From Psammoneis japonica (Eukaryota), in the NCBI GenBank assembly GCA_008632985.1, contig QPGO01000179.1, forward strand, positions 124,001 through 153,007: a DNA stretch of 29,007 nucleotides. The letters run 5' to 3'. A program made the position numbers and the translations under genes. This document shows positions 2,451-24,900 of the stretch, in pieces; the stretch's first letter is position 1; each line of letters begins with the position of its first letter. The notes under the pieces were generated by a model. That model was not told where the DNA came from. It saw only the letters and a list, made by a program, of their open reading frames with translations, and did no database searches.

Positions 2451-2704
2451 CAAACATCTCTTGGAACAAGGCAAAGAATCTTGCAAGGAGCACAATGAGT
2501 GCAGCAAAATGTCACTGCATCCATCGACCAAGATGACACATTTAAAAGATGGACACACACCACACCTTTTTGCTTTGCAGAGATGTGGCAGTTCAGATCT
2601 TGCACATGCAACCACATTCATTGATGTTTGTGTGAAAATGTGCTGTGCATTCTCAGCTCTGAGAGTGTTGCACATTGGCACCATGGCCCCAAAAAGGGAG
2701 CTGA

Positions 2705-3099
2705 GACGCGTTCCAGACGCAGGTGGGAATCCGTGTGACATTGGGCCCACAGAATTCTACGTGCGAGCTCTGCAGCAAAATCACACGGCAATTAAATTGT
2801 CAATGTTCGCCAACAGAAAATGAGGCAATTTTGTGAACGCACAAACTCGCACATGATTGAAGCACATCGTTTTTTACTTGGCCACTTACATTCTTCAGAC
2901 ATTGAAGAATGTAACTGGCGCATTGTTGTTTCTAAAAATTTGGCATGTAAAACGTCTGGGGCTTCGCAAAACAGCGAGTCTGGACAATTTTTTTTAATGT
3001 CACACGCAGAAATCTACGTGTGAAACACACGATGGATGACAAAAATTATTTGTGTCACACGTCAGCACTGCGAGCTCCCACCTGGGGCTGGAACGTGTC
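2705..3099. mobile_element. MITE-like non-autonomous DNA transposon (copy B, same TIR family as A)
   Basis: Left GACGCGTTCCAGACGCAGGTGGGA, right TCCCACCTGGGGCTGGAACGTGTC. 4-bp duplication CTGA (2701-2704, 3100-3103). TCTACGTG motif near both ends, also present in copy A at ~1609. Confidence 0.8.
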
Positions 3100-3129
3100 C
3101 TGATTGCGTGTTGAGCTAAGACCCACAAT

Positions 3130-4024
3130 GCTGGAGAGAAGGGACAATCACTGTGACAATCATTTGGTTTGATGGTCAGCAGACTTGATCTGTTGATGCT
3201 GCCTGAACAAAGGGAAAAGATTCTCTCCACAATGCATGGAGGATTTCTGGGAAGGACAGCAAGGTGATCACCAACTTCACACTGGACTCCTGTTTCATCA
3301 AGATTGAAAGTGCAAAGATGAATGTTGGGCAATCATGCCCAACAGCCACTTGGCTTTCAGCAGATTCCAATTTGACACAGCGACAACTTGGAGGCAAAGG
3401 ACGAAACTGACTGTCTTGTGCATTCCTGGTGCAAGAGCAAGCTTGAGCAACGGCTTGGGTGGATCAAAAGTGAAGATGCCCCACCACCTTCTTTTCTGAA
3501 GAGCTTTGGCAATGGTTTCTTGAGCCACTTCTCTGGCTCACTCCCTGTCCACACAACTCAGAATGCTGGTCATTGCCCAATCTTGCCCCAATCATTCTGC
3601 TTCCTCCCACTTCTTCCAGTCTCTTATCCAGCCATTTCGTGGCTTGACAAAAGTGGTCACCAACAGCACACATTGACGAGCCAAGTCCAAACATGCCAAA
3701 GTGAAACTCCTTGCACTTGTCATCCTTGCAGTCTTCCAATTGGTCCCAGAGCTGCTCCACAGTCTCTGGGAACTCACCTTTTCCAAACACACAGGTGACA
3801 AATGTTGTTCCAAGCAATTCAGCAACACTCTTCATGAGCTTGTCAGGATGCATGGCATTGCCAGCTGTGAGGCAAACTTGTGCCTCAGGCAACAACTTGG
3901 CTTGTCCAAAAAATCCATGCAACTCAAGCTTGATCTCCTTGGCTGCTTGAGCAGCCGCTCTCCTGCTCTGGGTTCCATGCACAGCACAAACAGCATTGTG
4001 ACTGTCCTCATTTTCAACTTTCAC
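3130..4024 (-). pseudogene. Diflavin reductase fragment (flavodoxin + start of FAD-binding domain; NOS/CPR/sulfite-reductase-like), frameshifted and truncated
   Basis: Flavodoxin motifs VHGTQS, TCVFGKGEFP, FGMFGLGSSMC, LDKRLEEVGGSR..G..LGNDQ. FAD-domain motif HLCTFNLDETGVQCEVGDHLAVLPRNP lies in another frame. No NADPH-binding domain visible. Confidence 0.85.
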
Positions 4025-4174
4025 ACAACAAGAGCCTTGAGCACAACAGGTGGCTTTGTTGGTTGTGGGAAGCCAGGCTTCTTCAAAAAGTTCTCACACA
4101 GCAGCTTGATGGCTTGACTCTTGTGTTGCTTTTGCACCGCCACTCTTTTGTCCAAGGAATGGATGCTGTCATTG

Positions 4175-4226
4175 CATTTGGGAAGAACATCTTCATCTCT
4201 CATTTGGGAAGAACATCTTCATCTCT
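4175..4226. repeat. Perfect 26-bp tandem duplication
   Basis: CATTTGGGAAGAACATCTTCATCTCT at 4175-4200 and 4201-4226. Confidence 0.97.
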
Positions 4227-5808
4227 GCTCTGAATCAACCCTTCTGTGAAATGGCAGTTCTTAATTCCTTCTTCAAGTTGGGCCAGAAAGTTGCATTTGG
4301 TGGGTGACTGCTGTGCTCAATGCTGCCTTGCCAGCCTGCTGCTTTGGCGGCCCCAACAAGTCTGCCTTCAGAACAATTTCCGGGCTTGCCACCGAACATC
4401 TCAGAAATGGTGGGATTGATGCAGTGACAAACGGCCAAGAAAGCAGCACAACCACACATGCCACATCACAACTCAAGATTGTTCATTGTTCATTCAACAG
4501 CATCACAACAGATTTGTGACTTCAACATCATCTTGTGTGTTGAACAAAACAAGTGTTTTCATTTCATTGTGGGCAATGATGTTGTGCCTTGCACTGAACA
4601 GTTTCATCTTGTGTGTGCCCCTCAAGAAGTGCTCCTTTCTCCCCTGCATCATTTCACTTTCCACCAAATCTGCACACAAGCCATTCATTCATTTGTCACT
4701 CAGAGCATCAACTTGCAGACACACTGCCTTGTCATTTAAAGATGAGAAATGAACACTGTGTCTCCATTGTTGTGACCAAGCATGTCATCAACAGCTTGGA
4801 TGATTGAGGTTGCAGCCACCTCCATCTGCTCTTGAGTGGATTCATTGTTTTTGAATGTGATCCAACAACGATGACAGTGTGCTCTTGCCGATGAGATTCA
4901 AATGCTGCACAGATGATGATGCAACAAGAGTCTTTGTCATCCTGTTGAATTCCGACTTGACCCAACACAACACACATGCCTTCAAAACGATCATCCCCTG
5001 GAGAATGGTTTGCATCCAAAAGTCAAATGGCAGGCGGTGCAGCAGTCATCTTTTTCTGATGATGGTGTGGTTGATGTCTCTTGTCATCTTGTGAGAATGA
5101 GTCGTTTGGCTGCATCATCATTTGTTTGATCAGTGTCTGTGTTGAGTTGATCAATGCACACATGCATGAAACCTCCTCAAGGTTTTGATTCAATGCCAAA
5201 TGGATGAAACACTGTTGCCCATTGCCCCAAGATTTGTTTGTGCATGAATGACTGTCCGAGACACCAGTGCTGTGTCAGGATTTGTGGGGCTCCACCTGGG
5301 ATGCCAGTCCCATCTGCAGAGTGTGCTGCTGACAATCAGTGCAAGGCACTGAAAGCCAGCAAAACAGCAATGAGTTGTCTTGCTGACTTCTGCTCAGTTG
5401 AAATTGTGAGCCAAAACTGGTCTAAAAGTGATTTTCTTGTTTTGTGATCCAAGAGATCTCGGATGATGCCACATCAGAAAATGGACATTCTTTGAATGCC
5501 GCTCATGTAGAATGTGCACTGAGGGCAGGTCATGGTGGAGGTTTGACACTTGCATTGAAACTTTCTGATGTCTGACAGCCGTGTGGAAATTCCAAGATGA
5601 TTGGATGTCTTTGAATGTCCACAGTCTTTCTAAAATGTCACAGGATTCTATGTCCAAATGTCTGAGGGGAAGCCAAAATTTCAAAAAGCAATCTTGGGAC
5701 TGCTGGATGAATGCCTCCAATGGTTTGATGGCAATTGTTGTTGCAAAATGCTTGTTGTGGATCTTGAAGCTCTCTTGCAGGTTCGCTCTTTGTTTCTGAA
5801 GTGATGGT

Positions 5809-6017
5809 CCTGCACACTTTGTGCCGGCACTTGGCATTGCTGTTGTTGTCATTGTTTTTGTTTCGTTGCGTTGCGTTGTCATTGCATTGCACCAGCTGCT
5901 TTTGCCTGAAAGATCGCCTGCGCACTTTGTGCCGGCACTTGGCAATGCTGTTGTTGTCATTTTTTTGTTTTGTTGCATTGCGCTGTCATTGCGTTGTGCC
6001 AGTTGCTTTTGCCTGAA
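5809..6017. repeat. Two ~108-bp tandem direct repeats
   Basis: CCTGC(A/G)CACTTTGTGCCGGCACTTGGCA... starts at 5809 and 5917. Both copies end GCTTTTGCCTGAA. Confidence 0.92.
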
Positions 6018-6537
6018 CGATTGTGTCTTTGCGGCAGCATCATTGACATGGTCATTGACGACGTGTTCTGTGGGATGCGCAAGAAAATCAGTGAAACTGC
6101 TTCGATGAACGTCACAGAAAACAGAAACAACAACAGCGGCGGTGAACGGCATTGGCACGACTTGGCAGCTTTCATCCTGAAGCTCTGTTTGCAACATTTC
6201 TTTGTGGCGTCTCCATTGCATTTTTGCATTGAAAGTTGCATCCACAGGTGTTCAGGCTGTGCGACAGTTGACAAACTGATCATGGGCATCTTTCGTTGTG
6301 TTTGAAACCCTGAAAGATCCATTTGAGGCATCTCCTTTGGTGATCAAACAACCAGGTCTTTTTGGTGCACCTTGGGAAACCAAAAGAGCAACTGCGATGA
6401 GTGTGGGAGAAGAAGGAATGTGTTGCAAATGGTTGGGACACAAGTGTGCGCATTTGCAGAGTCTTCCTTACAAAGACAAGGATTTGAAAAAAAGGCACTG
6501 GAGAGAGGAGTGACTTTGCAACAACTGAAGCGGCTGC

Positions 6538-8813
6538 TTGTGTTGTGCAACTGACAAAGCAGAAAAGGTGTGGAAAGAAGCTTGCAAACCTTTTGAGAAA
6601 GAGCTTGATGTGAAAGGGGTTGCAGAACATTTGTTGCAGGTGGAGAAAGAGAAAGGCAAAAGCGACAGAGGCAACATTTCTGATGGACAAGGCTGGAAAG
6701 CGGAGGACTGCACGAAGGCAGATGCCAAAGGTGTGTCAAATTGCCAGGCATCAAGAACATGACCAAACGTCATGCAGAAGCAATGTGCACCATGAAAACG
6801 ATTCTTCGGGCTTGGGTGCAAGCTTTGGGAGACAAGTGGACAGATGTTCCATTTTCTTCTGACAAGAAATGCAATGAAGTGTTCTCTTCTTCTCTGTGTG
6901 AGATGTTTGACATGCCCATGCATGATGAGGAGGGAGAAGCGACCAATGTCTTCAAGCATTTGACACTTGCAATGACTTGCATTGAAGAGAGAGATGGGGT
7001 GGAACCTGTGTTGTTTGGCGCGCATGTGGATTCAATGAACTGTTGAGCCGTGGATTGCAATGCCTTCTTTTGTGTGTGCTTCCATTGAAGCCAAGCGATG
7101 GATGCTGGTGTCGCATTTCATTCATTGCGCACAGTTGAAAAGCATGCAAAGATTGTTTCAGACGCAAGAACTTGCAAGCTGAACTAAAAAAATTCATTGT
7201 GGATTGCCACACTTGTTCATCAAATGAAAGAAAAGCTGGGTTGACAGTGTCGGGTGTTCCAGATTGTGGTGAAGGCAGGAAGGAATCATTGCCTGGCTTC
7301 AACAAGGCAAAAGTCTATGCCGGGTTTTTGACAGGTGTGCTCACCAATCAGGGTCTGTGTTTTGTTGCATGCTGTTCAATGATCTGATTGTTTGTCACAT
7401 TTCTCTTTGCAAAGGGATCTGCCGCATCATGCAAAAGAGGAGCAATGCCAATGATCCCCTGTCCATGGCCAGAGCATGTGAGCTGCTTTCGCCTCTGGGA
7501 CTCATGAACACTTGCTCTCAGCACTGTGAGCAAATGAAGGAATGGGAGAAGTTTGGGAAGCTTTGCGATGGTTGTTGGGTTGAGGCTCTCTTGGAAGACA
7601 TGACAGAGCAATTTGAAACAGGGATTGCGGGAGGTTCCAGGCCAAGAGCAACCAATTGGTTGTCAGCATCTTTCACCCAAGAGCAGATGGTGGAAGCAAA
7701 ACAAACCATCAGAGAGACCACAGTTGGTTGCAACAATGGTGAGGAAACTCCCGAAAGTGCTGCAAAAAAGTTGTCTGGCATTTTTCAAGCAGGATGGCTT
7801 GGGGCTCAGCACATTCTTGTGGGAGCCACACTAATTGGATTGGCGCACGATGTTCGTTTTTGTGCATCTGCCTTTGTGTGCAAGAAAACGGAGACTTGGA
7901 ATTGTCTCGTGAAGGAGTGTGAATTGGGAGCAGCAACTGTTGATGCATTGCATGCAGAAGTTGCCAAGGAACTGGGCGTGACGATGACGTCATTGAGAAC
8001 ATTGTGTGCGAAGCTTTCAGAGAGATCGCAGACCCTTCTGAATGTGTGGATGTTAAAAAATGTGAAGCGGGAGCAAGTGCATGTGTAAAAGCCAATGGAA
8101 AGGTTCGTCGTCCGGATGTTTGTTTCCTGGACATGGTCGTTGTTGACACCAAAGATGACAGAAGGCAGGCGCTGTAGAAAGAATTTGGAGATGGTGACAA
8201 ATTCATTGCCAAGACAGCATGGCATGATGTTCCGGCATTGGCTGAAAACAATGAAGCAGAGACTCCTTGGATCAACTCAAGTTTTGTCATTCCCTGTCCA
8301 AGCAAAGAGATCAAAGCCACTTGGAAGACAAAGTTGGTGTCTGAAAGGAAGAAGCGGAGTGCCAAGCCAGTGCCAAAGAAAAGAAAGTGTTTGCCTCATT
8401 CCAGGTTTGGCCACATTGTGGGATTGGATGAAGCTCTTGATGCTGCCCATGCAAAGAAAGTTAAAAAGGCACAAGCGCATGATGCAGAGCAACATGATCC
8501 AAAAAGAGAGTTCAACAAGATGGCAAATGAGAAATTCCAGATTAAGAGCTTCTCCAGTTGGATGACACAAAATCGCAATGTGTTGGATTGCACATTGACT
8601 GTGGCAGCTTCTTGGCAAGATGGAGCCTGTCAATGTTTTGATGCCTTCACTGCATGTCGTGCCATGTCACTGCCTGACAAGAAGAAGATGCTGGGTGAAA
8701 GGAAGATTGTGTCGTGTGCAACCACTGGATCATCCGGAGCTTTTGGCGACACTCTGTGCACTGTCAAGTTCAATTGTCCCACACTCCAGTGTGTTTGTCC
8801 CGGAAAGATGTGA
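6538..8813 (+). pseudogene. Compact TET/JBP-like dioxygenase module + helical ENxxC domain (paralog 1), several frameshifts/stops
   Basis: FGAHVDSMNC (His codon at 7023). After a frameshift, DGCWCRISFIAHS*K (7112-7141; reads RISFIAYSRK if reverted, cf. TET2 RISLVFYQHK). Then IFQAGWLGAQHIL, VIENIVCEAFR (~7990-8021) and DVCFLDM. True start uncertain. Confidence 0.55.
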
Positions 8814-9544
8814 AAGTGGTTTTGCAATGTGGGCTTGCAAAAGGTTTTGATCAAGATGGGTTGCACTGGCATCGCAGCAAAGCAGATGCTGAGAAGGCTT
8901 CATTTTGTAGAATCCTTGTAGAGCATGCTGCGTCATTGGCGCATGATGATGCAGAACCCAGTTGGGCCATGAAGAAGCTCCCGTCAAGTGAAAAAGGCAG
9001 CCTCTGTGAATGTCACTGTGTGTTGAACGAGCATGGCAAGCAAGATTGTTTGTCGGGCTCATTGTGGGGTGTCCTGTTCTTTAGAATGGACATGAGAGTC
9101 CTTTCAATTCCCACCAACAAGCATGACATGTCGGAGCCATGGGACAGTTGCTGTTTGTTGGGTCAAAGAACTTGGCTCAGTGACTCCATCGTGCCACACA
9201 GCACCACACGCAAAAGTCGTTGCCTTCTCCATTCCATTGGAGAACCTTCTCTCTTGTTCTGCCACTTTTGGGAAAAGTCCTGATGTGAAGGGCAGACGAG
9301 GTTGCTCTTGTCTCCAACAATTGCTGGAAACTGTCGTGGTGGCTGACTGCAGCGGCGCCTTGGCAATTTTTCCTGCAAGACAGCCTGCGAGAGCCAAGGA
9401 GGTGCTCCCCGGCAAGACTGAGAGGGTGCCTCCAAGGAAGGGGGCGCAACTCCATGTGCTGCGGCCTGAATTGCCAGTGTCAAACAAATTGATCTGGAAA
9501 CGAAATTGTGTGTTGCAAGTCAAGCCGACACGGATGAGTCTGAA

Positions 9545-10413
9545 AAGTTGGACCCTTTGATGTGATTGCGGGGTGCAACGGGGTCAACTCAATTGTGCAA
9601 GACTCGATTGACAGCAAGGCCTTTCAGCAAAACATCACATTGCTGCCAGGACAATTCAAAGTTTCCGCCAATGCTGAATCCAACCTCTGCATCCTTGTTG
9701 TTGCCAAAAAAGGGTGGAGTCACTGCCTTTGTGGAGCCAACTCGAAATGGAGGAGGTTGCATCTTGTTTGCTGGCAGACAAGAGGATGATCCGATGTTCA
9801 CCAAGAACCCTCAAGAACTGGACATCATTGAGCGATGCCAGTTGCTTGATGGCATTGACGTTGACAAAGTGACCAGTCAGCCATCTAGACAAGAAGCATC
9901 TTGAGCATCATCAGTGCGGTGCAATGCCTGCCGCTGCAAGAACCTGGCACTCTGTGGAGATGCAGCCCATGCTGCAGGCGGCGTTTCTGGGCAAGGCATC
10001 AATTTGGCTCTTGCCGATGCGTCTGCCTTGGCTGCATGCATTGACCCCTTTAAGTTGCAACATGGACAAGGATCCATGGGCAAGGATGCAATTGTGCAAG
10101 AAGCTCTCTTGGTGCATTCTCAGCCCCAAGTTCCATCAGGCAAGGCACTGTGTGTGACTCATTCTTTGGCAATGGAAGCAGCACTTTTGTTGGAAAACGG
10201 ACTCGCTCTGCGCTTGCCACCGTTCAAGATGCCATTTTCCAAGGCAAGCCAAGCATTGGGCGCATGCCTCTGCAAACACTCTTGGCATCTTTGTTGACAA
10301 TGTTTGCCGACATGCAACGTGATCGTGACAGAGACTTTGACACTACATTCCCAACTGCGGAGGAATGGAGTGAGTGCTTGGCAGATTCATGTGGGCAGTC
10401 CAGCACGCATTGA
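9545..10413 (+). pseudogene. FAD-dependent monooxygenase fragment (DG and GD motifs), N-terminus missing, frameshifted
   Basis: GPFDVIAGCNGVNSIV (DG motif) and LALCGDAAHAAGGVSGQGINLALADA (GD motif). No GxGxxG Rossmann start found upstream. Confidence 0.85.
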
Positions 10414-10888
10414 TTGCATTGCTGTGCTTTGCCAGCTGAGGGGTGCAATCCCCGAATGTCTTGGACAATTGTGAGTTGGCAAAGGTGCTGGATGACTCCA
10501 TGTCGGGTTCTTGACCGGCCGAATTTGTCGTCTCTGGCACTCAACTTGTGCTGATGAAGTTCAAACGAGATTCTAACCGAGGACTCACCGTAATCAAGAA
10601 GAGGAGTCACATTCTCTAGACCACAGTGCAGCCACCTCGGTGGACCACATGAGCTCATTTTGTGCACAGAACATCAGATGTTGAACTCTGAACAATGCGG
10701 CACAAGCTCTTGACACTCTTTAACACAAAAAAGGTCTGCGAACTGTGCTGTCGACCTGCGCCTTCTGCCACTAGAGAGAGTTGCTAAATCCACCGCAGTC
10801 TTGTGCTGTGACAACAGGGAGGTGCAGCAGACCGAAATGCACGCCTGTGCAAGAAAAGATGAAAACTCCTTGATGACTTTGTCGTAAA

Positions 10889-11820
10889 ATGTGTGTCAAA
10901 TGTCAAGAAATGAAGTGCAATGTTGAGAAGCACCCTTGCAGTTCTCGTGGTGCAGTGCCAGCTTTTGTCCAAATGTTTTGCAAGGTGCAAAACAAGGCCT
11001 CCAACAAAACAACTTTTGCATGTCCCATGGCATTGACAGCGGTGAACAAGGAAGAGCACATGAGTTTTCCCGCAGGCTCCAGTTTGGAACCTTTTGGATG
11101 CAGCAAAAACGGGTGGAGACCTGCCACCTGCAAAGGCTCGTCAAACCTTGTGTCAAGGGGAATGTCCGCCATTGAATTGACATGGACTTGTTCTGCATGT
11201 GGGGCCAATTGCACTTGTGTCTCTTGATGCCACTGTCCTGAGAACTCATTTTGCAGACAAACTGCAAAACGGAAAATGTTGGACGCACTTGCCACTCATT
11301 GCACAAGGGTTTGAGCAAGGGATGTGATTCAACTGCAAATGAGGCTCACGCAAGGCATGGCATTCATGAAGAAAGAGTCATGCCTCCAACTGTGGGGTTG
11401 AAGCTTGATGTGACACAAAGTGTGGATTGGAAACTTGATGATCCAACACCTGATGGAGAAAGTCCACCTGCACTTCATTGAACGATCCTCATGCACAACC
11501 ACCACAAAGCCTTTTTGTTTGACTTTCTGGACTGCATCGGGATCTGCAGTGTGCATCATTGCCAAGGATGACAAGGATTTTGGGGTTGGCAGGCGCCTGG
11601 ACTTTGGTCTCACCCACGCCATGGAAAAGAGGTTTGCGTGGCCATTTTCAGTGAACTCCTGGCCACCCCCCACAACTCCAATGACATTGAGGGAATGACA
11701 GCGCACTCATCTGTCAGCAGACAGACCCAGACAGAAATGCAGAGGTTGACTTTCTCTTGTTCCAGACAACTTTTCTACATGAAGCACCTGCCAATTGTTT
11801 CTGCGTGGAGTTCTGCATGA
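10889..11820 (+). pseudogene. Degraded gene of unknown function
   Basis: Successive protein-like plus-strand ORF pieces (10889-11227, 11251-11481, 11638-11820) separated by TGA stops or frameshifts. No recognised motif. Confidence 0.3.
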
Positions 11821-11845
11821 ATTTTGTGCCAAAAACTCGTCACCA

Positions 11846-13207
11846 TGACAAATCCTCCGCCGCCGCAGGCTGGCCCTGCCAGCGAGTCTCTTCCTTGTCC
11901 TCCCCCTGATGAGGACACCACTCCATCCACTCCAGCCAGAGCTGGATCCAGAAAACCCGAAAGCTCTTTGTCAAAAGAGATTGCCGCCCGTTTTGAACTC
12001 ACCTCTTCTGACGACAACGCATCCACGGTGGCATTGGCGGTGGGTCATGCTGCAATTCTGAATGCCCCTCAGCAGAAAGCCACCCAAGATCCCTTGATGA
12101 ACAAGATGGCAATTGTGCCCAATCATGGCCCAAAAATTCCTGGGGTCAATGTTGTTGAGTGGACTTCCGGGCTCACTCATTCTCAACACTTCATTGTGCA
12201 ACACATGAGCTTCAGAAGCTTTGCAATCCCCCACCGTTCAACTGGTCGCTTTGGTGCAAAGAGCGTTAAAAATGTTTTGTGATGAAATGGGTTGTCTGCA
12301 TTTCTGTTGTGAGGACGTCACCCTGCAGGGATCATGCACATCCTGTGGTCAATTTTGTGAAGGACACCGCGACGTAAAAAACTGCACCTGGCTTCTGTGT
12401 CGGAAAACAGCCGCTGGTTGTTTCTTTGTCATGGATGCCTTTGGCGATGTGTGGTCCTTCAAGGTGGTCACCAACAGCAGAAGCCCCATTGGTCAATGCT
12501 GTGACGACAAGCACGACATGAACCGGATGTTGACTTGGATGCACCACTGCCAAGCTCAGCTTGACTTTGTGCTTGAAGACATGGATCTCCAACACGATGG
12601 TCCCACCCATCCTGACTCTGTCCCAACCGCGTGCAAATTCAAAAAACTCTCACTTGATGACAGCCGTCCATGGAATGAAGTTGTCATTGGCGGAGGCGGT
12701 GACACGGGAATTCCCCGTGTGCACATGGATCGGCTTGAGTTCCCCACATTCCCTGTGAGGGACTTTCACCTGTCCACCCCAAGCACAGCTCTGTTCCGTT
12801 TCAAGAACATCGTGCACAGATCTGGGCCAGATCCGAAGCGAGTCATGCAGTTGGCCATTCATGCTGGTTGTCTGACTGGGCATAGCCGATTCTACACTGC
12901 AAATGAGAATCACTCTGAACAAGCTGTTTTCACTCTAAATAAAAAACAAACAGAGCATTTTGCTCCAGTTGCAAGTGCTGAACAATCAATTGTGGCTTTG
13001 CTCTGTTTGAGCCACAGTCAGAGCAACATGCTCTGTGCACAAGACAATCAGAGCAAAATGCCAACATTTGCCCTGTTCAACCGCATTCAGAGGATGCCTT
13101 TGACCAAGTCCAATCATTCAGGGCATTTGCTTCAAACAACTGCAGCCTCCTGCGACCTTTTACATTCTCAGAGCAAATGGTTTTTTTTCAAAGCAAACGA
13201 ACAATGA
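11846..13207 (+). pseudogene. Compact TET/JBP-like module (paralog 2) with Pro/Ser-rich N-terminus
   Basis: EDVTLQ...FCEGHRDVKNC (His codon at 12365; cf. TET2 HAHRDLHN), followed ~20 aa later by VWSFKVVTNSRSP. Spacing is similar to paralogs 1 and 3. Confidence 0.5.
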
Positions 13208-13520
13208 ACACACACACACACAATGAGACGCAATGATGGACGATTCAAAGCGTCATTGGCGCACATGCACGCATGCATTCATGGTTGCATGTCAATGCTC
13301 GTAATCTCGTTTTTGTTTGTGGCGATCTCGATGAGCATCGTTGTTGCTCTGTTGTTGTCAATTGTCGCCTTTGTCGGCGCATTGCACACACAACACAATT
13401 TTTGCATTTCCACCTTTGTCTGCACAAGTCATGGCCTCCACAGCCTTCTCCACATGCTGCAAACATTGCTTCTCGACTGTTCCATTGACTCAATGTGACA
13501 ACTCCAACAGCATCGTAAAC

Positions 13521-16500
13521 ATGGGTGATTGCCTCCATTCCGGCAAATGTCTCAACCCGGAGTGTTCAGTTGATTCCTTTTTTGTCTGCGAATGTTGCTG
13601 GAACAGCAGCAACACAAACAGCGGTGGTCGTCATCTTCCAATTCTTAAAGATTGGAAAACCTGCGTCAAGCACGCCAAAACTCCAACTCATGTGCAATCC
13701 TTTGAAGCTTTGAAAGTCGCACCAACAAGCAGTGCAAATGCTGTGTGTGCGCCGGCGGAGCCTGCACACGACGAATGTTGGTGCAACGATGACAATGACG
13801 CCTCTGTTTCCGAGAGCAAGGAGCCTTCCAACCAAGATGATTGGATTTACGACGTCAATGATGCCGGCTCACGTCCTCCATTGCGCATTGATGATCTCGA
13901 CAAGGTTTTGATCCGGGCTCCAACAGCCCGGCCTTTTTTTGGTGCGAGCATTCGCACCCCGGACAAGGCATCCAGAAATTGACAGCTGACGCTTTCGAAT
14001 TGCCCGTCACCGAGGTGACCAAAGAAGAGGCCCATTTTTCACTTGTGATGGCTGGCCTGCTTTCACAACTCACCAAGAAACAACGTGAATTGTTGGCAGA
14101 ATGCATGCTGCAAGCCACAAACAGCCGTGATCCAGACTTGTCCATTTTTCGTCGGACTCGTGTCCCCACTTCTGTGAAAGATTTTGAAATGTTGCATTTG
14201 TCCAGCAAACGTGCCATTGTGCCAAATTTGCCTCATCCTGTTCCCAGGAAAACCGATGATGGCAGTCATTCCTGTGTTTCTTTTAAAGACGTGCTTGCAA
14301 ATGAGTTGGCAAAAGCCACGCAATTTGACAAGTTCTATTTTGATGCGGACGTCATTGTTCAAGATTCGCAACCTGCCATTTCGCGCACACCGGCGGCGCA
14401 TTCCTTGTTCATGGAACTTAAAGAAGATGTCGACGGTTTTGTGTTGTGTCTTTGGGTGCGAGAATGGCGTGATGACTTCGATCCCAACGGCACGAAGAAG
14501 TCACGCAATCAAGTGTGGCTTGACACGCACACCTGCTGCCCTCCTCCCAATTCTTCCAGTGGATGCCACACCCACTTCATGGCAATGTCGTCCAAGGGAG
14601 AAAATCATGAAGTTGTGGAGACAACATTTGAACGTGAACTGCAGTCGTTGTCTGAAGAATGCCATTGGTTTTACCATGGCGGCCTGCAGAAGCTCATGCG
14701 GGTTAAAGCTGGCAAACTCAGTGTTTGTGTGGATCGGCCTGAACGTTCCTGCATGTTTCGTGTTGGAGACCACAATGGCAGCTGTTCAACGTTTTGGGAA
14801 CATGCCTGTCATGTAGATGGAAACTGTTCTTTCAATCACTTGCCTCATTGTCAGCTCTGTCGCAAAGCACATGTGAGCAACCATTTTAGCACGTCCGAGG
14901 ATCCTTCTGATGTCGCTGACAATTCACAGGAAGAAGGAGCACCAGTGGATGGCGCAGTTGCAATCAACGTTCCTCCTGTTTCTAGCACATGTCCACACAA
15001 TGCTTGTGCATCCTGGAATGTGTTCGACACCGCGTTTCGTTTTCTGGCTCCGGCTGACTGCCCCTGTTCACATGACCAACGCGAAGGTGCACCGAAACCT
15101 CCCACTGGCAGGGAAGTGACTGTCTTCAACCCGTCGGCACATGACATCCAATCCACTCAAGACTTGGCCACAGATCCATCCACATCGACCGATTCTTCTC
15201 GTCGCAGACGCAAACGCCAACGTGTGGCCGCCCCAAGACAATGGTTGGCCTCCATCAAACTCACTGTTCCCTGGTTCAGCAAGCGATCGTGTTTGCGCAT
15301 CACAACATGAGAACACATCCGCCGGGCACCCCAAGTGCCAAGCGCTTTTGGACCAAAGCAACCTCACGGCCCATCTTCGCACTTGTGCCGTCATCCAACG
15401 CCACATCGACACAGTGTGCGCAGCTGCAAAATGCAATCTGCCTTGCCCAACACATCCAGCACCTTGGCTCAATCCCAAAGCACTTTCACGTTGTCATTGT
15501 GCACCAATGCACACCATTGGTCTGGGCAATGTTAAAAGTGATTTCGAAATGATGTCCAAATTGTTCTCTCGATTTGAACTTCAGGCAACCTTTGGAAAGC
15601 AAGCAAACAAATGCTTGCGGTCCATCCAGTCCCTCCGATCAACCAAATGTTTTGCGGCTCATCCACTGTCCACCAGCAAGTGAGGCACAGGTCCCTGGGT
15701 CAGTGAAAATTGCTTCTTTTGGGCAAGGACAGTAAAATTTATGGTCACGCTGCCTTCGCTTCACCAACAACGGGCAATGGACAATCACTCGGATCATGCA
15801 GGTGTGTCACGGATGTTGCTTCGATTCGCTTCTGCCACACAAGCTTGTCTGAGCCGAGTCATGTCTTCGAAGCGCGTTGTTGGGGACCTTCACGAAATGG
15901 TTTTGATGTTTTGGATGCAATGGTCGAGATGGACATGTGGTTGATGAAAGCACCCTCAGATGAGGCAGACAACGATGCCGTAGAAGGCGACGGTGAAGTT
16001 CAGAAGAAAAAGAAAAAAAGGCGAACTTTGTGAAATCTGTTTCACTTGGAATGCTGGGAGTCGCCGAATCCCACCAACATGATGGACCGCCATTTGCATT
16101 GGAGGGTGACGATTCTGGAGAAAGTGGTGTGCAAACTGTGAGGCCAGAGGTCAGCATCAAACGCAGCAATGCAGACTGGCAAACAATCGCTTTGCGTCAC
16201 ATTCACCAACAGGCAACCATTTCTTGGCTTTTAGAACGTGACAGTGAGAAAGGTTCATCGAAGAACAGACGTCTAGATGGCATCTTCAAAATCTACAGCA
16301 ACTGGAACACATTGTTGGAGGCAAGACAGCATGCCTTCCCTTGCTGCCTTGTCGTCCGATTGCACTGTGTGGTTGTTGTTTCGACCAGTGGGTGAAAAAG
16401 GAGCCACTCGCTCCTCTGCAACTGCAGTTGCTTTAGAATTTGTGGATGAGGAAGGTGAAGAAATTTTGGACTTGTGTTGGATGGCGCCAGTTCAAGCAAC

Positions 16501-16717
16501 AGACAGGAGAAAATCATTTGATGCGGCAACAGATCTTTGCAACAGTTTGGGACATCAGTTTGTGCTGGCATTGCCAAGGATGGAAGATGATGGTGAAACG
16601 TTCCTAAACAGCTTTCATTGTGTCAGCCATCTGTGGAATGAAAGAACCAGAGATGGATGCTTTGTGAAATCGGAACTCAGCTTGGACGTTTTCGACGATT
16701 GGTTGACAGCCGGCTAA
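13521..16717 (+). mobile_element. CACTA/EnSpm (CMC)- or Plavaka-like transposase pseudogene with N-terminal Zn finger
   Basis: N-terminal CxxxxC..CxxC..HxxxxxH. Core motifs LWVREWRDDFDPNGTKKSRNQVW, CVDRPER..GDHNG, CQLC, APMHTIGLGNVK, PWVSEN and a C-terminal HDGP..EG...E segment. Several frameshifts and TGA stops; ends at TAA 16715-16717. Confidence 0.72.
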
Positions 16718-16920
16718 CCATCAACTGCTCTGTCATCCGTCTCGGTTGACAATCCAGCCTGTGTGGGGGAGACAATGGCATGAGCAGTGCACGTGCTCCA
16801 ATGGTGGATAGACCCGTGAAGGAGCAGCGCACATGCTCTTTTGTTTAAAGACGCGCTGTTGTGGCCGACACGCAGCTAGCTGCGGGGGATAAGAAGGACA
16901 TGCGAGCTGGGTGTCTGCTC

Positions 16921-19228
16921 TCATTTCATGTTCCTCTTTTTCTTTATGAAGCAGAACTGTGCAGATTGGTCCCTCATTGCGTTTGACATTTTGTTTTTGG
17001 CCAAAACACCCAACATCGCCTCTGGTGGATTAGACAGCAGTTTGTTGAAATTGAACTCAAATGCAATTTGAATGGGGCCATGATCCCAGGTCGACCCGGC
17101 CCAATCATTGTCCTCACACAGTTCTTTGGCAATCTCCTCCATCGTTTTTTCCTCACTTTTGTCTGAAAAGTTTTGGATTGATCCACCGGGAGGCAGCAGC
17201 TCTTCGGGGTCACTGGAACCATCAAAGTGACAAAGAAAATTCGCCTCATCGTGGAAAACAAAAAATGACATTCCTGCAAAATGGACATCGCAGCAGCTCA
17301 CCCTCCCTTTGCTGATCCAGAAGCGAAACATTTTGCAAAGAATGTTCTCAACAAAACGAATGGTGAAGTGAGTGTCTTTCTTGTCATCACCCCCGGGGTT
17401 GTTCAACTGCACAGTGAATGCACCCTGTGTGGTTTGAGCCAAACGGAACATGTCCGCATCGTCCATCTTGCCCAGTCCACATTCTTCGGCAATTTTTGTG
17501 TCAGGGAGGGAATCCTTTTTGCAGTGGCAATGATGCAGCATCCAAATGGGAAGCTGGCCAATTTCTGCCATGATCGCAATCGAATGATTGAGATGCAAGA
17601 CGTTGCATTGCGGGGAGAATTCAGACAACTGATTCATCAGTTTCTTGCAAACAGAGACGATGTCTTTGTTTTGTGGCTTGTTTGCATGCTCATTCCAAAT
17701 GTCACAAATCCACTTTCCCTTTTTGTCATTCCGTTTTTTCCATTCAGCCTTGGTTGGGAAGGGTGGTCTCTTGCTGCGCGATGCACATCGTAGAGGGATG
17801 CCTCTAGAATGTGCCTCTTTTACGTGGACCATCATTTCATAAATGAGATGTCCCAATCAACGGATAAAAGAACCAACGCAACTGCTCCAAAGCAATGTGA
17901 CTGCGCCGGGCACACCTCGAAGCAAGTCTGAACAGCAACAATCTGCGGCAACGCAAGTGAGAATTTGTCAATCATTGCGACAATGAAGTGTAGAAAGAGC
18001 TGGTGGCATGACGTTGGCTCCATGTTGCAGTCGCCTTTTAATGCATTGATTCCTTTGTGTCCCTTAAATCCTGTCAAGTGATCACAGACAATTGCCGGCT
18101 CCAGTGCTGCCGGTGCAGAGGCAAGTTTTGGCAGGCGCGAATGGCTCGTGTTGTGACGGGCAAGGCAAGTCGAATCCTCTTCTCCGCAGTTTCTACAGAA
18201 CTGCGGGTGCAAGCAATGGCAGCATCTCTTGTTTCTCCATCATCTCTGATTTTTGAAACAGACAAAACTGGGGTCATGTCTTTGTTTTGGCCGTTGCATT
18301 CATCCGAGTGGCAATCCACAATTTTGCCAAATTTGGCATTCGCCAGACGCAGTGCCTCCACGACATTGTTTGTTGAGGCATCCGGCAACGAACCCGCACA
18401 GTCTTGACGTCGGTTTTTCATCTCTTCATTGTGCCACAATCTAGATGTAAAAGTGGGATTCAGTGTCTCCGCAATTTCAGACATTGACTCAAAAAAAGGC
18501 ATTGCTTCCTCAGTCCCTTTCCCAACTCGAGGCCGTGCAACACCATCAGCATGGCCTTCCCTTGCAGTGCTTGTGTTGGTGCAAACGCCGAAATCTGCAA
18601 AGTGGTCCTTTGGTTGACAATGGGTCCCAGTTTTCTTGGGCTTGTTGCTTTTCTTTTTCTGAAAACGTTTTCTCTTGCCAGTTTTCTTGCCAACATTGCC
18701 TTTCCTTGTTTTCTTTCCCTGGTTGCTTTTCGACTCACGTTCATGGCATTTGTCAATCAGCACGCGCGATCGGTCCCAGTCAATGCGGCAGATTGGGTGT
18801 TTGTTTGGAAAGTGGTTGAGCACCAACATGAAGTCATTGCAATGGTCGGAATCAACATCACACAAGGACCATTTGATGTCAGTTTCATCCTGTCCAAGTG
18901 TTGACGCCAAATCCGGAATTGGCACTTGGCAGTGGGAGATGTCTGCTCTGCTTGCCAAGCAAACCTGCAGTTTCGACTGGAAGACAACATGCAGATGGGT
19001 GGCATGCTTTTGCCTGCGCTCTCCAGACAGTTTCCCCAAATTGTCAAGTGCTTTGGCTTTTCCAGAATTGTGACGGAAGCAAGCACTGTTCATCTCCTCA
19101 ATCACAAAAACAACATTGAACATGTTTTTGGCATGCAAGCTCTCTTCTTGTGGCAGGGAACGGGACAACACCATTTTCTCCCGCCGAGTCTTGCAGTTGC
19201 CAGTGAAAGTTGGACGCTGCATCTGCAA
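16921..19228 (-). pseudogene. Compact TET/JBP-like module + helical ENxxC domain (paralog 3), frameshifted
   Basis: NVVEALRL...VDCHSDECN (His codon at 18308-18310), then ETRDAAIACTRSS (18194-18234). Downstream FVENILCKMFR (~17325-17355) and DVHFAGM match ENIVCEAFR and DVCFLDM of paralog 1. Confidence 0.55.
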
Positions 19229-20583
19229 GGGCAGTGATGCCTCAAAAGCGCTTGAATGGCAATCAGATGATTGTCTCTGCTTCCATTGGGCAAATCAGAA
19301 TCGGAGAAATCAATGGGAAGTGCTGACACAAATGCGCCATCATGCCAATGCGATGATTGGTCACTCTGACTTGAGAAAACAGAATCAATGACATTGCTGT
19401 TCATTGATTGTTCCTCAACGTGATGCACAGAAGCCGAGTCCTCATGGCGTTTTGCTTCTTCCCGCATGTGCTGCTCACTCAGCAAGCAAAGCAACCGGTC
19501 TGCTGGTCTTCGCTTGCGAGGAGGTGGAGACCGTCCCAGGGGAGATTCCAGGCTGCATGACCTGGATGTGGCAGATCTTGTGCGGTGTGAGATTGGACTG
19601 CTGCTTCTGTTTCTGCGGAGTCGCATTTGATGAAATGGGACCATGCCAATGTTGGTGGGTTGACTTGCTCTGCTTGAACTCCTTGAGCGGATGCTGTCAT
19701 CTGCAGAACGTGCGGGAGGATGGCTTTTGTCCCAACCGCGACTCTCAGATTTCCTCGATGCACCCTGCCTGTGCGAGCGCAACGAATGCCTGGGTTTGCG
19801 AACACGCGATCGACCCCGACACCTGGATGGTGACCTCAACATTGTTGGAGACCTGTTTTTTGACCTGGAGGGTGACCTGCACCTGGATGGTGACCTGTGC
19901 GGTGACCTGTGTCTGCGCCGAGGTGACAACCTAGACCTTTCATTGGAAGAATCCAGAGACCTTCGACAAGACCATTGTGGTGAACTGGATGGAGACCTTT
20001 GGCGTGACCTCTGCCGCGATTGCGATCGACCGTGGTGATCCCCACATGGAGAGCAAGGAACAGCGCCACAACGTTCCCTGCAACTGTGCCAGGAACTTGA
20101 GTGATGGCGACCCATGGATGGTGACCGACACTGTTGCAGATGCCATCGACGAGAATGAGACCTAGACCCAGAATGGCGAGACCTTGATCGACAAGGAGAA
20201 CCACGCGAAGAAGTTCCAGAACAACAACGATGTCTGGTCCAATGACGCGATCAAGACCGAGAACTTGACAAAGAGCGAGACCGAGGACTTGACCAAGACC
20301 GGGACGGCAATTGACACCTTCGTCGTTGGTGGGAATTTGACCTCGACCTGCATCGCCGTTTGGACAGTCTGCGTTCCCTGGATCCGTTGTTTGGATTTGA
20401 CCACAACCGACCTGTGGAACTTTGAACAGGCGATTTGGATCTTTGACGAATCAAGCGACCCGGCAGATTTCTTGATGGACGTGCACTCCTTGTCCTTCTT
20501 CCCTCAGGAGCGCCGGATCTGCTGCAAGCGGGAGCGTCACATTTGCCTTTTCTGTGGTGCATGGATGGCTGGAATTTGAGCAA
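19102..20583 (-). pseudogene. Arg/Ser(Pro)-rich low-complexity coding region, probably the N-terminal part of paralog 3
   Basis: ORFs 20251-20583 and 19102-20115 share a frame, interrupted by TGA. They encode RSRSP/RSPSR repeats on the same strand as, and overlapping, the 18074-19228 ORF. Confidence 0.5.
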
Positions 20584-21253: not shown

Positions 21254-21923
21254 CTTCCCTGTGTCTCTGCGTCAACTGCTGACAATTGCACAGCAACGGA
21301 CGAGTGGGACTGCCAGTCCGTCGCCCAGCGATGTTCCGCCAATCGGTTTTCAACAATGAGACCTGGAGAACTGGCTGGGGCACCCTCGTTGTGTCGCACA
21401 GTTTGAAGAAAAGGGGACCGGCTGATCTGGGTTGTGTTGGCAGACGGCGCAAGCTCCTTTTTCCTTGACGTTGTCAAGAACACACATGTTCCAAGGCCAC
21501 CATTGTCGGTGGGTCGTCTCCGTCTGTCATGTCTCTTCCCTGCATCTCCACGTCAACTGCCAACAATTGTGCAGCAACGGACGAGTGGGACTGCCAGTCC
21601 GTCGCCCAGCGACAATCCGCGATCGGTTTTCAATGATGAGACCTGGAGAACTGGCTGGGGCACCCTCGTTGTGTTGCACAGTTTGAAGAAAAGGGGACCG
21701 GCTGATCTGGGTTGTGTTGGCAGACGGCGTGAGCTCCTTTTTCCTTGACGTTGTCAAGAACATGTGTGTTCCAAGGCCACTGTTGTCGGTGGGTCGTCTC
21801 CGTCTGTTGCATCTCTTCCCTGTGTTTCCGCGTCTGTCGCCCACCGACAGTCCGCCAATTGGGTTTTCAACAATGAGACCTGGAGAACTGGCTGGGGCAC
21901 TCTCGTTGTGTTGTGCAGTTTGA
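21254..21923. repeat. ~280-bp tandem repeat (two full copies and one internally deleted partial copy)
   Basis: Units start CTTCCCTG at 21254, 21535 and 21815. Long identical blocks include GAGACCTGGAGAACTGGCTGGGGCAC in all three. Confidence 0.96.
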
Positions 21924-21965: not shown

Positions 21966-24900
21966 ATGTCAAGGGACAATGGAATGAAAGCTCTTGCCAA
22001 AGCGGCTGTTGTGGCTTCCCAAGAAGAGAATGAGGAAATCCGGTTGTCACAGGAGGAGAACAACCACAATTCCCAGGAAGAAGATGTGGAAGAAGAGGAG
22101 GAGGAAATGCGGACGTCAGAGGAGGACAAGGAAGCTGTGAATTCTAAGGAAACAGACAATGATGCTTCTCAGGAGAAGGAAGATGCGGGTTCTTTACCAA
22201 AATCATCAAAATCCAAGGAGGGGGACATTCAACACATTCCCACCAAGCTCCGGCGTTTCGTGAATGCAATCAAACATGACATGTCAAAGTGTGTGCAGGA
22301 CAATGTCCACCACACTTGTCCCTTGTTCACCATGGTCAACCCAAGCACAGAACCAAAATCACTGACTGCACTGGCAAATTCTGGATGCAGGCCGAACAAT
22401 CGCGGGAAGAAACCATTTTGTTGCATCACAACCAGAAGGGGTTGTCATCCGACTTCGGCAAAGAAGCAAGTAAAAAAGCAAGGGAAGCTGCAAAGGATTT
22501 TCTTCTTCGTGAATTTAATCAAGAAAACGAAGGCAACATTGTCGACTTGTTGAACAACAAACACACTCACATTTTGGGAATTTGTGCAATGCCAAAAAAT
22601 CAAGAAAGCGGCAAACTGGCAACTGATCTTGTCGCTGCATTGTTGCATCGGTGCATTGAATTGGTGCCAGTGACAATTGTTGACTGTGTTTGAGTCAACA
22701 GAGGAGCCAAAGTCCACAACCATGGGTTGTGCCCCTTCCTGATTAGCCTGGCTCAATCCATCGGCTGCACGGTTGTTGGCACTTGGGACACAATGCTGCA
22801 TTGTCAAGTCAAGCTCAAACAATGCTGCTGTGAAAGTTTGGGTTTCGAGGACATCACAGAGGAAATGAATGAGGAGCCCTCTTGGGAAAGAGCAAGACAC
22901 CATTGGAGTTGGAATGCTTTGATCAAAGAGGACGGAGATGACACCAGGGCACTGATGGTGAAACGCAGAGTCACCACACGTTGTGCAAAAATTGCGTTGC
23001 CCATCTCTCACACAGAGGATGATTTCCAATGCCATGTGAAACATTGGCGAGATCGTGTTGGGTTCTGGAGCAGCAAGAAGAGACCCGCCGATCAATGCCA
23101 AGATTTGGTGGATCAAGAGAAAGACCTCATCTACAAATTGTCAGTGGTGATGGTTGGCAATGCAACACTGGATTCTTTTAAAGATTCCTGGCAAAAACAC
23201 ATGGATGGACGCCAATGGTTTGACATTGGAAAGTGCGTTTACGAATCCTACGAACATTGCATGGGTGCAAGTGACGCCAACCAAGTTAAGTCACATTTCG
23301 AGACAACGGCTTTGTTTGCCGCAAGCATCAATTTCTCCTGCCAAATGAGCAAATTGGCAAATGATGAAACATGGAAAAGAGCGGCGTTTCGATCGAGGAC
23401 TTCCGAGCTAGCTCAAAGAGCGAAATGTGTGAGGGGCAAGTTTGGCGCAACTGCGGAGTCGGGAACTGACAACCGGAAGCATGTTCTCAACCCCAAGTGT
23501 TGCCAATGGAGTCGGAGCAATTCAGATGAAGACATGGAAATGGAAATGCCTTCAGGTGATGATGGAGCCACACGTCAACTTCTTGAAAGAATCCATTTGA
23601 AGTGCAACATGGTGTTTCCCATCGACTACAACCAGGAAGATCAAGGTGGACTGTCACCAGCAGCAACTTTGTTTTCAGCGCTTGCGGGACCTTGTCATGA
23701 TCATGCAATGTGTGTTCCGGGCAAGCACCCCATTTGCACTGCACAAAGCAAAAGTGCAGTGTACAAACTGCTGGTTGGTGCTGCACAAGAAGACAGAGAG
23801 ACTCTGAAGGACCCAGAGAAACGCCAAGTGCGGTTGAACAAAAAGGATTTCTTTCTGCCACCTTTGCGACACATTGCAATTTGGTGCAAAGAAGCGGAAC
23901 AACTGCATTTGCACCAGATCAATTGGTTGTTCCGACAATGTCATTTTACAGAGCTGGCGAAGGAGGCGATGCTTGACAAAAAATTCTCTGCCAGGGGAAA
24001 CAAGCGAGAAAAGAAGGAACCGAAACCACAAGAGGGAGATGGTGACCCAGAGGAAGAGGAGTCCAAATCGGAACCAGAAGATCAAGGTCTCCTTGTGTCA
24101 CGAAGAAAAGTGTTGTCTGCTGGGGACAAGAAATGTCAAGATCTACGTCATGAGGCGAGGATGCACCATGAGGATGCCAAAGAATTGGCACGGCTGCATG
24201 GTTTTGAGTGGGCCGATCGGGCCACACGGCCGGATGAAAGTGAGGTGCCAGGTGATGCTGTTGATTGTGAAGGACCAGTTTTACATGGATGGTTCGAAGA
24301 TTTCAAGCACGGCAGAACATTTGCTGAAGACCATTTTGGAGCGACGAATGACAAGGACATTGGAGGAGGGAAGATGAACCTTGTTCGAGCTGCAATTGAG
24401 GAAGCTAAAAAGAAACCTGACACAAGAGTGAAATTCAATGCTGGGCAAAAGAGGCAAACCAGCAAAAGAGCCGATCACATGACAAACAATGGCCAGGTTC
24501 ACAAAGTGAGACGGCTGACAGAGAAGGAGCTGATGAAGGAGGGGCTTGCAGCCGATGATGATTTTGAAGGTCCGGAGGGAACGCCAGCATTCGTGGGGGT
24601 TGGCACAAGGAAGAAACCGTGCTGTCATGCCATGGAGTGGGCAAGAGCCAATTTTCAGCAGCGATGTCCCACAGTGCACAAGGCCATGTGTGATTGGGAG
24701 CCAGGGAAGAAATGGTGCAGACTGCCGGAGGGTCACGTGTTGGATAAAAGCGGGCTGGAATTTCCCAGCTTGGGACCCCCAGTCAAACATCAACAAGGGG
24801 AGAAAGACACGTGCGTGTTTTCGAGCCTGGCCAGTGTCCCAAATTACATTGGAGATGAAAGGATGGAGCGATGTGTTGTGAATTACATGGATCATTCTTG

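Follow-up and report, generated by a model that had tools for sequence, protein, structure and literature searches.

The window analysed here, a stretch of 29,007 nucleotides from Psammoneis japonica (assembly GCA_008632985.1, contig QPGO01000179.1, positions 124,001 to 153,007 of the forward strand), carries on its minus strand a gene, termed gene 3, whose predicted protein combines an oxygenase-like domain nearest in fold to the TET/JBP enzymes with a helical domain that resembles the amino-acid:DNA transferases of phages. Gene 3 lies tail-to-tail with a transposase-like gene of CACTA/Plavaka-like DDE type in a repeated stretch, and the reading of its product as a transposon-borne, two-step modifier of DNA pyrimidines is favoured with moderate confidence, on the strength of structure models and by analogy to phage systems. 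A preliminary description of the window had called three short motif sites three paralogous genes with a compact TET/JBP-like module flanking a transposase. As judged from the sequence, these sites are one near-complete gene (gene 3), one clear relic (site 1) and one doubtful short relic (site 2), and not three genes. All positions given below are those of the window.

Gene 3 and its protein family

With the 406-residue frame around the third motif site as query, phmmer found 28 proteins at E<=1e-3 among 1.84 billion representatives, with lengths of 160-1100 residues and a best E-value of 1.3e-23. A word-indexed protein search with this frame and with that of site 2, covering proteins of near length, returned no homologue. 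No Pfam model covers the family and none of the sources gives it a name, as had been supposed in the preliminary description, which spoke of a possibly undescribed family; 27 of the 28 proteins are without a Pfam domain and the remaining one shows a spurious FG-GAP match. Its members are only 19-32% identical, except for three close relatives at about 60%. The idea of a compact or minimal module did not hold, as members have 500-1100 residues and three domains, namely an oxygenase-like domain of about 300 residues, a helical domain of about 290 residues and a small beta domain.

A profile of the family built without window rows matches the minus strand in three pieces, 18077-19294 (248 bits, E 1.1e-74, hmm 144-489), 17835-18239 (46 bits, E 9.7e-14, hmm 500-565) and 16924-17856 (79 bits, E 1.7e-23, hmm 581-823), and tblastn with 27 homologues as queries yielded the identical three pieces. 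As these are collinear, gene 3 is, by its sequence, a single family member of about 790 codons distributed over three frames. The features of gene 3 are as follows:

16924..19294, minus strand: gene 3, near-complete family member in three frames (18077-19294, 17862-18068 and 16924-17856), from the family profile and tblastn
18077..19147, minus strand: predicted TET/JBP-like double-stranded beta-helix domain, from AlphaFold2 and VIA-align
18997-18980 (HLHVVF), 18937-18926 (SHCQ), 18313-18293 (CHSDECN) and 18229-18209 (RDAAIAC), minus strand: motifs with conserved residues of this domain
16924..18068, minus strand: predicted helical domain (helix-hairpin-helix glycosylase-like) and C-terminal beta domain, from the model of the homologue P0041 and hhalign
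17352-17332, minus strand: VENILCK motif, aligned with the Glu/Cys block of phage transferases
19105..20250, minus strand: Ser/Arg-rich open frame overlapping the gene 3 frame at 19105-19294, candidate N-terminal extension

The frame 19105..20250 is probably a low-complexity N-terminal extension of gene 3. In one contig of the sequencing run X1 (465 of 641 in word depth here) a single additional base follows 19272; by frame arithmetic it would bring this frame and that of gene 3 into one. The homologues too have long low-complexity N-termini. Within the P0041 cluster, the protein P0072 has 1750 residues, the last 716 of which are 99% identical to P0041; they are preceded by an Asn/Thr-rich low-complexity N-terminus of 1034 residues with no Pfam match.

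The first domain has a predicted TET/JBP-like oxygenase fold

TET/JBP 2-oxoglutarate (2OG)-Fe(II) dioxygenases carry an HxDxxN motif and a distal RxSxVxY motif. AlphaFold2 models were obtained for P0041 (29 rows; pLDDT 89.2, pTM 0.84) and for the window frame of gene 3 (pLDDT 79.9, pTM 0.78), and both were compared by VIA-align with 48,161 chains, the tool stating a background of Z 7-8. For residues 25-306 of P0041 the best matches are NgTET1 (Z 9.9, 170 aligned residues, rmsd 3.7), TET2 (7.6), CMD1 (7.0) and CcTet (6.9), followed by AlkB, ALKBH3 and FTO, and for the window-frame model NgTET1 (8.1), TET2 (7.0), CcTet (6.8) and CMD1 (6.1), followed by AlkB-type enzymes; among the 50 rows of the latter comparison about 40 are 2OG/Fe oxygenases by title and four are clearly something else. 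The first domain thus best matches, in both models, a double-stranded beta-helix oxygenase fold nearest to TET/JBP. What gives this assignment its weight is that both models rank the matches consistently and that the H-x-D motif is conserved, and the case for TET/JBP membership as such is one of fold and motifs only. In Foldseek, weak rows from viral models carried the names of an amino-acid:DNA transferase, at E 0.14, and of a JBP1/TET protein, at E 0.48, and the protein atlas held no usable named match for this domain.

Across the family H258 is conserved in 25 of 25 proteins, D260 in 24 of 25 (one has Glu) and N263 in all 24 that reach it. R287, located about 27 residues past the Asp, is invariant (22/22) and R295 nearly so (21/22), and two His residues of the N-terminal strands, H60 (21/21) and H80 (23/23), are invariant as well, being contained in HLHVVF and SHCQ of gene 3. 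The window copy retains all of these residues and differs at R156, which is Lys. Since no conserved downstream His column exists family-wide, the canonical facial triad (2-His-1-carboxylate) is incomplete, and H60 or H80 may supply the missing third ligand of the metal.

Several suggestions of the preliminary description can be judged from these data. A TET/JBP-like fold was borne out insofar as the four best solved matches of two independent AlphaFold models are all TET/JBP enzymes and the H-x-D motif is present, while Pfam Tet_JBP, the PDB sequence profile and Foldseek gave no support. The HxD residues are indeed conserved in intact homologues, with the following Asn likewise. The short distance to the downstream motif proved to be a trait of the family and not of decay, with the invariant Arg in place and no His between, and the distal His that was missed at the three sites is absent throughout the family. 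To the distal RxSxVxY motif, whose Arg binds 2OG in TET/JBP enzymes, the likeness is loose: beside the invariant R287 (22/22) and the nearly invariant R295 (21/22), Ser occurs at +2 of R287 in 8/22 and Tyr at +6 in 12/22 proteins.

The second domain resembles amino-acid:DNA transferases

For residues 313-611 of P0041, matched within the full-length model, the best VIA-align row is gp46 of phage PaMx11 (8z2m_A; Z 8.0, 230 aligned residues, rmsd 4.7), the 5-PmdU glycinyltransferase, i.e., a glycine:DNA transferase. The next rows are DUF2419 and helix-hairpin-helix glycosylases. For a comparison on the level of sequence, gp51 of phage M6, which is recognised by Pfam ADDT (E 1.4e-46, positive control), and five relatives were used. 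Aligned to the family by hhalign, M6 gp51 gave E 0.012 over 22 columns (probability 3.5) and the alignment of all six phage transferases E 0.0033 over 41 columns (probability 9.7). Both alignments cover only a block that pairs E243 and C247 of the phage enzymes, present in 6/6, with E581 and C585 of the family, present in 13/14 and 15/16 members, respectively, and the window gene keeps it as VENILCK. In the available text on the phage transferases a Cys and a neighbouring Glu are described as essential (PMC8989533); we infer that E243 and C247 are these residues. On models and this short stretch of sequence, the second domain resembles the phage amino-acid:DNA transferases of aGPT-Pplase clade 2.

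The transposase-like gene and the repeated stretch

13440..15908, plus strand: transposase-like gene of CACTA/Plavaka-like DDE type, running through frames 3, 2, 1 and 3, from tblastn of long homologues
14471-14488 (DDFDPN), 14729-14746 (VDRPER), 14840-14860 (LPHCQLC) and 15495-15512 (HCAPMH), plus strand: transposase motifs from alignment A1
12207..20000: repeated stretch with the site 2 frame, the transposase-like gene and gene 3, from the depth of X1 contigs, with its left edge near 12207

The 471-residue frame of the transposase-like gene has 36 homologues, the best of them at E 2e-151, and one of the clusters at 90% identity comprises 158 members. In the alignment A1 of these proteins DDFDP, VDRPER and LPxCxxC are (near-)invariant, and HYAPMH and SENY are present in those 3-5 homologues whose length extends to this region. 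The available text of PMC12730594 defines the CMCT clade (CACTA/Mirage/Chapaev/Transib/Plavaka) by the motif order D, D, C(2)C, H(3-4)H, E, to which the order D, D, C(2)C, H(4)H, E of the alignment conforms, as read by eye. Pfam transposase models matched none of 19 transposase homologues at E<=1, a PDB sequence profile of the alignment gave nothing useful and the protein atlas provided a weak Plavaka lead (0.88). The statement of the preliminary description that the gene stands beside a transposase is upheld, as the transposase-like gene adjoins gene 3 in the repeated stretch.

The comparison with X1 contigs covered window positions 6000-20000, the right edge of the repeat being beyond its reach. 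Summed word depth, which is not to be equated with copy number, is 354-1634 in 17 bins of 12071-20000 versus 57-63 in five bins of 6467-8801, and five contigs diverge from the window before 12207. The 752 contig pieces placed on the window fall into 199, 206, 235 and 112 with at least 99%, 95-99%, 90-95% and less than 90% likeness. At three frame breaks of the window, X1 contigs carry additional bases, namely one at 13897, 28 at 17856-17858 and one at 19272, which restore the frame by arithmetic, so that the breaks are specific to the window copy and not introns. More intact copies of the element probably exist. One contig skips 995 bases in 13099-14095, with 31 other letters in between, and is a deletion derivative that lacks the start of the transposase gene.

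Intact homologues of the family gene in a single frame are carried by seven metagenome loci, including L001 (with a frame of 790 codons), L002 and L004. At L004 the gene is tail-to-tail with a frame of 1129 codons (2171-5560, minus strand), in which a core like that of Mutator transposases and a Cys/His cluster of SWIM-like kind were noted by eye and which has no Pfam match even at E<=10.

Sites 1 and 2

6298..8900, plus strand: site 1, insertion of 2.6 kb with a decayed, 5'-truncated family copy, from contig comparison and profile
6741-7043 (with AHVDSMN), 7040-7384 (with RISFIAHS, then TGA) and 7273-8085, plus strand: pieces of site 1 matched by the profile
12209..13204, plus strand: open frame 2 of 332 codons, candidate short relic by its likeness to the H-x-D block

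The motif strings of the preliminary description were found where it had placed them, AHVDSMN at 7020-7040 (plus), GHRDVKN at 12362-12382 (plus) in the 332-codon frame and CHSDECN at 18313-18293 (minus) in a 406-codon frame. Such motifs as such are at chance level, as H.D..N occurs four times in the six frames of the window versus 3.1 +/- 1.9 expected from 200 Markov-2 simulations. The frames of the three sites gave no pairwise BLASTP alignment (E 0.61, 49 and 3.3), a self-BLASTP of 471 window frames at E<=1e-3 found no link among them, and Pfam searches of 14 and then 142 window frames returned no match at the three sites or at the transposase. The relation among the sites becomes visible only with profiles made from outside homologues, excluding window rows; in a search of 963 frames with block profiles the next best frames after gene 3 are 7139-7384 (E 0.022) and 12209-13204 (E 0.056). 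A first reading, by which all three sites were chance motif matches, was overturned by the family that was found with outside homologues and profiles.

Site 1 lies in an inserted piece of 2.6 kb, since one X1 contig joins 6297 directly to 8901 and skips 2603 bases. RISFIAHS (7112-7135) is in another frame than AHVDSMN and is directly followed by TGA, so that the site contains one frameshift (near 7040) and one internal stop, the latter aligning to the conserved Arg of the family. With the stop read as X, the piece 7040-7384 scores 23.0 bits against the profile of outside homologues, a value reached in 0/1000 shuffles, and two further collinear pieces score 5.9 bits (3/1000 shuffles) and 7.3 bits (1/1000); when whole frames with stops as X were searched, 7100-7237 matched hmm 439-484 (iE 0.0055). 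By these profile matches site 1 is an older, truncated relic of the family gene.

At site 2 the likeness to the family is limited to about 75 residues (residues ~41-114, 12329-12550, with GHRDVKN and WSFKVVTNSRS at 12452-12484), and the remaining ~200 codons of the frame do not match the family. Judged by its profile scores it is doubtful as a paralogue and at most a short relic. That it is a chance match, the frame either belonging to the element without relation to the family or being open by accident, has a probability not far below even: against the whole-family profile it reaches just 0.5 bits, as did 13/1000 shuffles, hhalign gives E 0.089 with a probability of 0.64, the word-indexed search found no homologue, and in a window with chance frequency of H.D..N the near absence of TAA and TAG makes long open frames easy. 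On the other side, the frame is the third-best of 963 for the H-x-D block and in the correct register, scores 11.6 bits on this block with 0/1000 shuffles reaching that value, and shares the element with gene 3.

Of the three paralogous genes that had been proposed, gene 3 thus stands as a family member and site 1 as its decayed relative, while site 2 is insecure and the window copies are broken. An alignment of the three regions, which had been named as a check, failed in pairwise BLASTP and succeeded for site 1 with the outside-homologue profile, leaving site 2 uncertain. The arrangement around the transposase applies to sites 2 and 3, whereas site 1 is located 5 kb upstream in its separate insertion.

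Base composition and further features of the window

The observed/expected (o/e) ratio of TpA over 1-29007 is 0.08 (151 TA in 29 kb) and lies between 0.04 and 0.11 in every 3-kb bin, with 1.66 for TpG, 1.62 for CpA and 0.54 for CpG; in related metagenome loci TpA is at 0.5-0.6. The loss is not peculiar to the assembly of the window, since X1 contigs agree to 99% or more in unique parts. Tyr makes up 0-0.4% of the residues in the frames 13895-15307, 18077-19294 and 16924-17856, compared to about 3% in the homologues. The preliminary description had proposed TG/CA changes at Tyr-like sites, and this was seen: of 21 columns with conserved Tyr, 12 show His or Cys in the window, as results from TA changed to CA or TG, and a single one shows Tyr. 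There are 221 open frames of at least 60 codons in the six frames, many of them overlapping on both strands; as TAA and TAG are nearly gone and changes of TA to TG or CA never make a new stop, long open frames constitute weak coding evidence here. Differences between the window and the contigs in 6000-20000 are mainly transitions (A>G 113, C>T 146, G>A 133, T>C 96), each transversion being counted 11-21 times. Among 35 listed transitions between copies, 19 exchange CpG with TpG/CpA and eight TpA with TpG/CpA.

Further features were noted apart from the family gene. At 3003-4093 (minus) pieces of a cytochrome-P450-reductase-like gene were found by Flavodoxin_1 (E 6e-11) and FAD_binding_1 (E 5e-5); the frame is Tyr-poor by eye and may be a pseudogene or show the same composition effect. 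Weak fragments match FAD_binding_3 at 9905-10294 (plus, E 3.5e-5) and a class-III aminotransferase at 25313-26251 (minus, E 1.5e-4), and an open frame of 785 codons at 22694-25048 (plus) has no Pfam match. Tandem repeats are located at 21254-21822 (280 bp, two copies, 90%), 5809-6021 (107 bp, two copies, 89%) and 870-1203 (~171 bp). The window has no match to the dinoflagellate spliced-leader motif, and a tRNA scan of it found no gene.

Proposed function and alternative explanations

From the fold, the conserved residues and the phage parallel we infer a mechanism of two steps. The first domain would hydroxylate the 5-methyl group of a DNA pyrimidine, either thymine or 5-methylcytosine, and the Cys of the second domain would then attack C6 and allow the hydroxyl to be exchanged for another group, resulting in a hypermodified base. 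The gene would travel with the CACTA/Plavaka-like DDE transposase in a multi-copy element, and the base chemistry could mark the DNA of the element or blunt methylation-based silencing. A bolder version, in which a single chain turns thymine or 5-methylcytosine of chromosomal DNA into a hypermodified base new to eukaryotes by means of a TET-like hydroxylase with its third ligand from an upstream strand and a fused phage-type transferase, is tentative and rather unlikely; such a hypermodification might bear on the near-total loss of TpA in the window. So far, fungi are the group in which TET/JBP genes on transposons have been described, and phages the one in which amino-acid:DNA transferases hypermodify thymidine, and the proposed function, if true, would widen the range of epigenetic counter-measures of mobile elements and might add a new DNA base in eukaryotes. 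The family would in addition be a test of how far the active site of an oxygenase can be rebuilt.

A number of observations weigh against a two-step modifier. As to the first domain, Z-values of 8-10 are just modestly above the background of VIA-align, and Foldseek, which had been proposed as a check against TET/JBP/AlkB structures, found nothing at E<=1e-3 in the PDB for either model or among viral models. Pfam, with Tet_JBP and ADDT included, matched 0/19 family members at E<=10, and when 142 frames of the window were searched at E<=1, neither of these two models gave a match; a PDB sequence profile of the family alignment A2 gave no match at E<=10. No column of family positions 261-420 has His in at least 45% of the proteins, the best being 353 with His in 7/18, and the Ser of the distal motif is mostly missing. 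With regard to the second domain, helical domains are prone to middling Z-values and need a higher Z according to the warning of the tool, the probabilities given by hhalign are low, and neither Pfam HMUDK nor a P-loop kinase was matched among the 142 window frames at E<=1, i.e., no frame resembling a 5-hmdU (5-hydroxymethyldeoxyuridine) kinase was found, although the substrate of the phage transferases is a phosphorylated base. In the window the copies of the family gene are broken, gene 3 being disrupted in frame, and conserved Tyr residues are replaced. For the element, scans of the window for direct and inverted repeats found no element ends, terminal inverted repeats or target duplications, and the linkage that the preliminary description had wished to see in homologues did not appear, as 0/7 metagenome loci with the family gene, obtained with a narrow alignment and having short flanks, hold this transposase.

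Two of the alternatives concern the chemistry. The gene could encode a demethylation module, the TET-like domain oxidising 5-methylcytosine and the helical domain, as a helix-hairpin-helix DNA glycosylase, excising the oxidised base, whereby CpG methylation of the element would be erased. This would fit the matches of the helical domain to the glycosylases AGOG, Mag1 and MagIII (Z 5.0-5.7) and OGG1 (4.4), the depletion of CpG in the window and the prevalence of CpG<->TpG/CpA exchanges between copies, as expected under CpG methylation, and the available text of PMC12730594 has TET/JBP genes on fungal transposons as thought to counter silencing. It is considered unlikely, because the best structural match is a transferase at Z 8.0 with glycosylases not exceeding 5.7, and the sole link of the helical domain on the sequence level is the Glu/Cys block of the transferases. 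Equally improbable is a dead oxygenase fold that binds no iron and has the sole role of presenting a base of the DNA to the second domain by binding or flipping it. In its favour, all members lack the canonical downstream His and no sequence profile recognises the domain, but the His, Asn and first Arg of the motif are invariant and the Asp nearly so across proteins as distant as those of this family, two further invariant His residues are on hand, and the pattern suggests a retained active site.

The association with the element can be doubted as well, in that the gene might belong to a multi-copy family of the host that stands beside the transposase by location and is not cargo of the element. 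The metagenome loci without the transposase and the missing element ends speak for this explanation. It is nevertheless quite improbable, since both genes are in one continuous stretch of high depth from ~12207, and since the homologue at L004 is tail-to-tail with a different long frame that looks by eye like a Mutator-type transposase. A transposon-borne two-step modifier is thus retained as the preferred reading.

Comparison with known systems

With the solved TET/JBP enzymes NgTET1 (5cg8), TET2 (9hxv), CcTet (7vpn) and CMD1 (7cy4), which head the structural matches of its first domain in both models, the family has H-x-D-x-x-N in common and, tentatively, an Arg located on a following strand. 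In contrast to these, it has no downstream His, a distance of ~27 residues from the Asp to the invariant Arg and no match to Pfam Tet_JBP, and it possesses two invariant upstream His residues and a fused second enzyme-like domain. A dinoflagellate TET/JBP enzyme reportedly makes 5-hydroxymethyluridine and silences transposons; this enzyme is likewise eukaryotic, linked to transposons and acting on thymine, but it is encoded by a host gene and is a recognised TET/JBP member. The window transposase family has the same motif order as CMCT-clade transposases and is multi-copy, without a match to Pfam transposase models (0/19 at E<=1).

Fungal TET/JBP genes are carried together with DNA transposases including those of the CACTA/Plavaka group, and the types PU, AG and PE all keep the downstream His, with HxE in PE, according to the available text (Kojima, 2025; PMC12730594). 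In analogy, the family gene sits with a CACTA/Plavaka-like transposase, and the very divergent PE type was also found only via structure. Unlike PU, AG and PE, the family is without the downstream His and adds a transferase-like domain, of which the fungal description, in its available part, has no counterpart. Phage cassettes for the hypermodification of thymidine contain, besides a 5-hmdU kinase and sometimes a TET_JBP gene, an amino-acid:DNA transferase (aGPT-Pplase clade 2, Pfam ADDT), as given in the available text of Lee et al. (2021; PMC8989533). As in these cassettes, a part resembling a 5-methylpyrimidine oxygenase is paired with a transferase-like part, the Glu/Cys block is common to both and the best solved match is PaMx11 gp46. 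In contrast, both parts are fused in one protein of a eukaryotic transposon, no kinase was found in the window and Pfam ADDT gave no match. A literature search, weak as the term 'TET/JBP' was poorly matched, found no description of a eukaryotic TET-transferase fusion.

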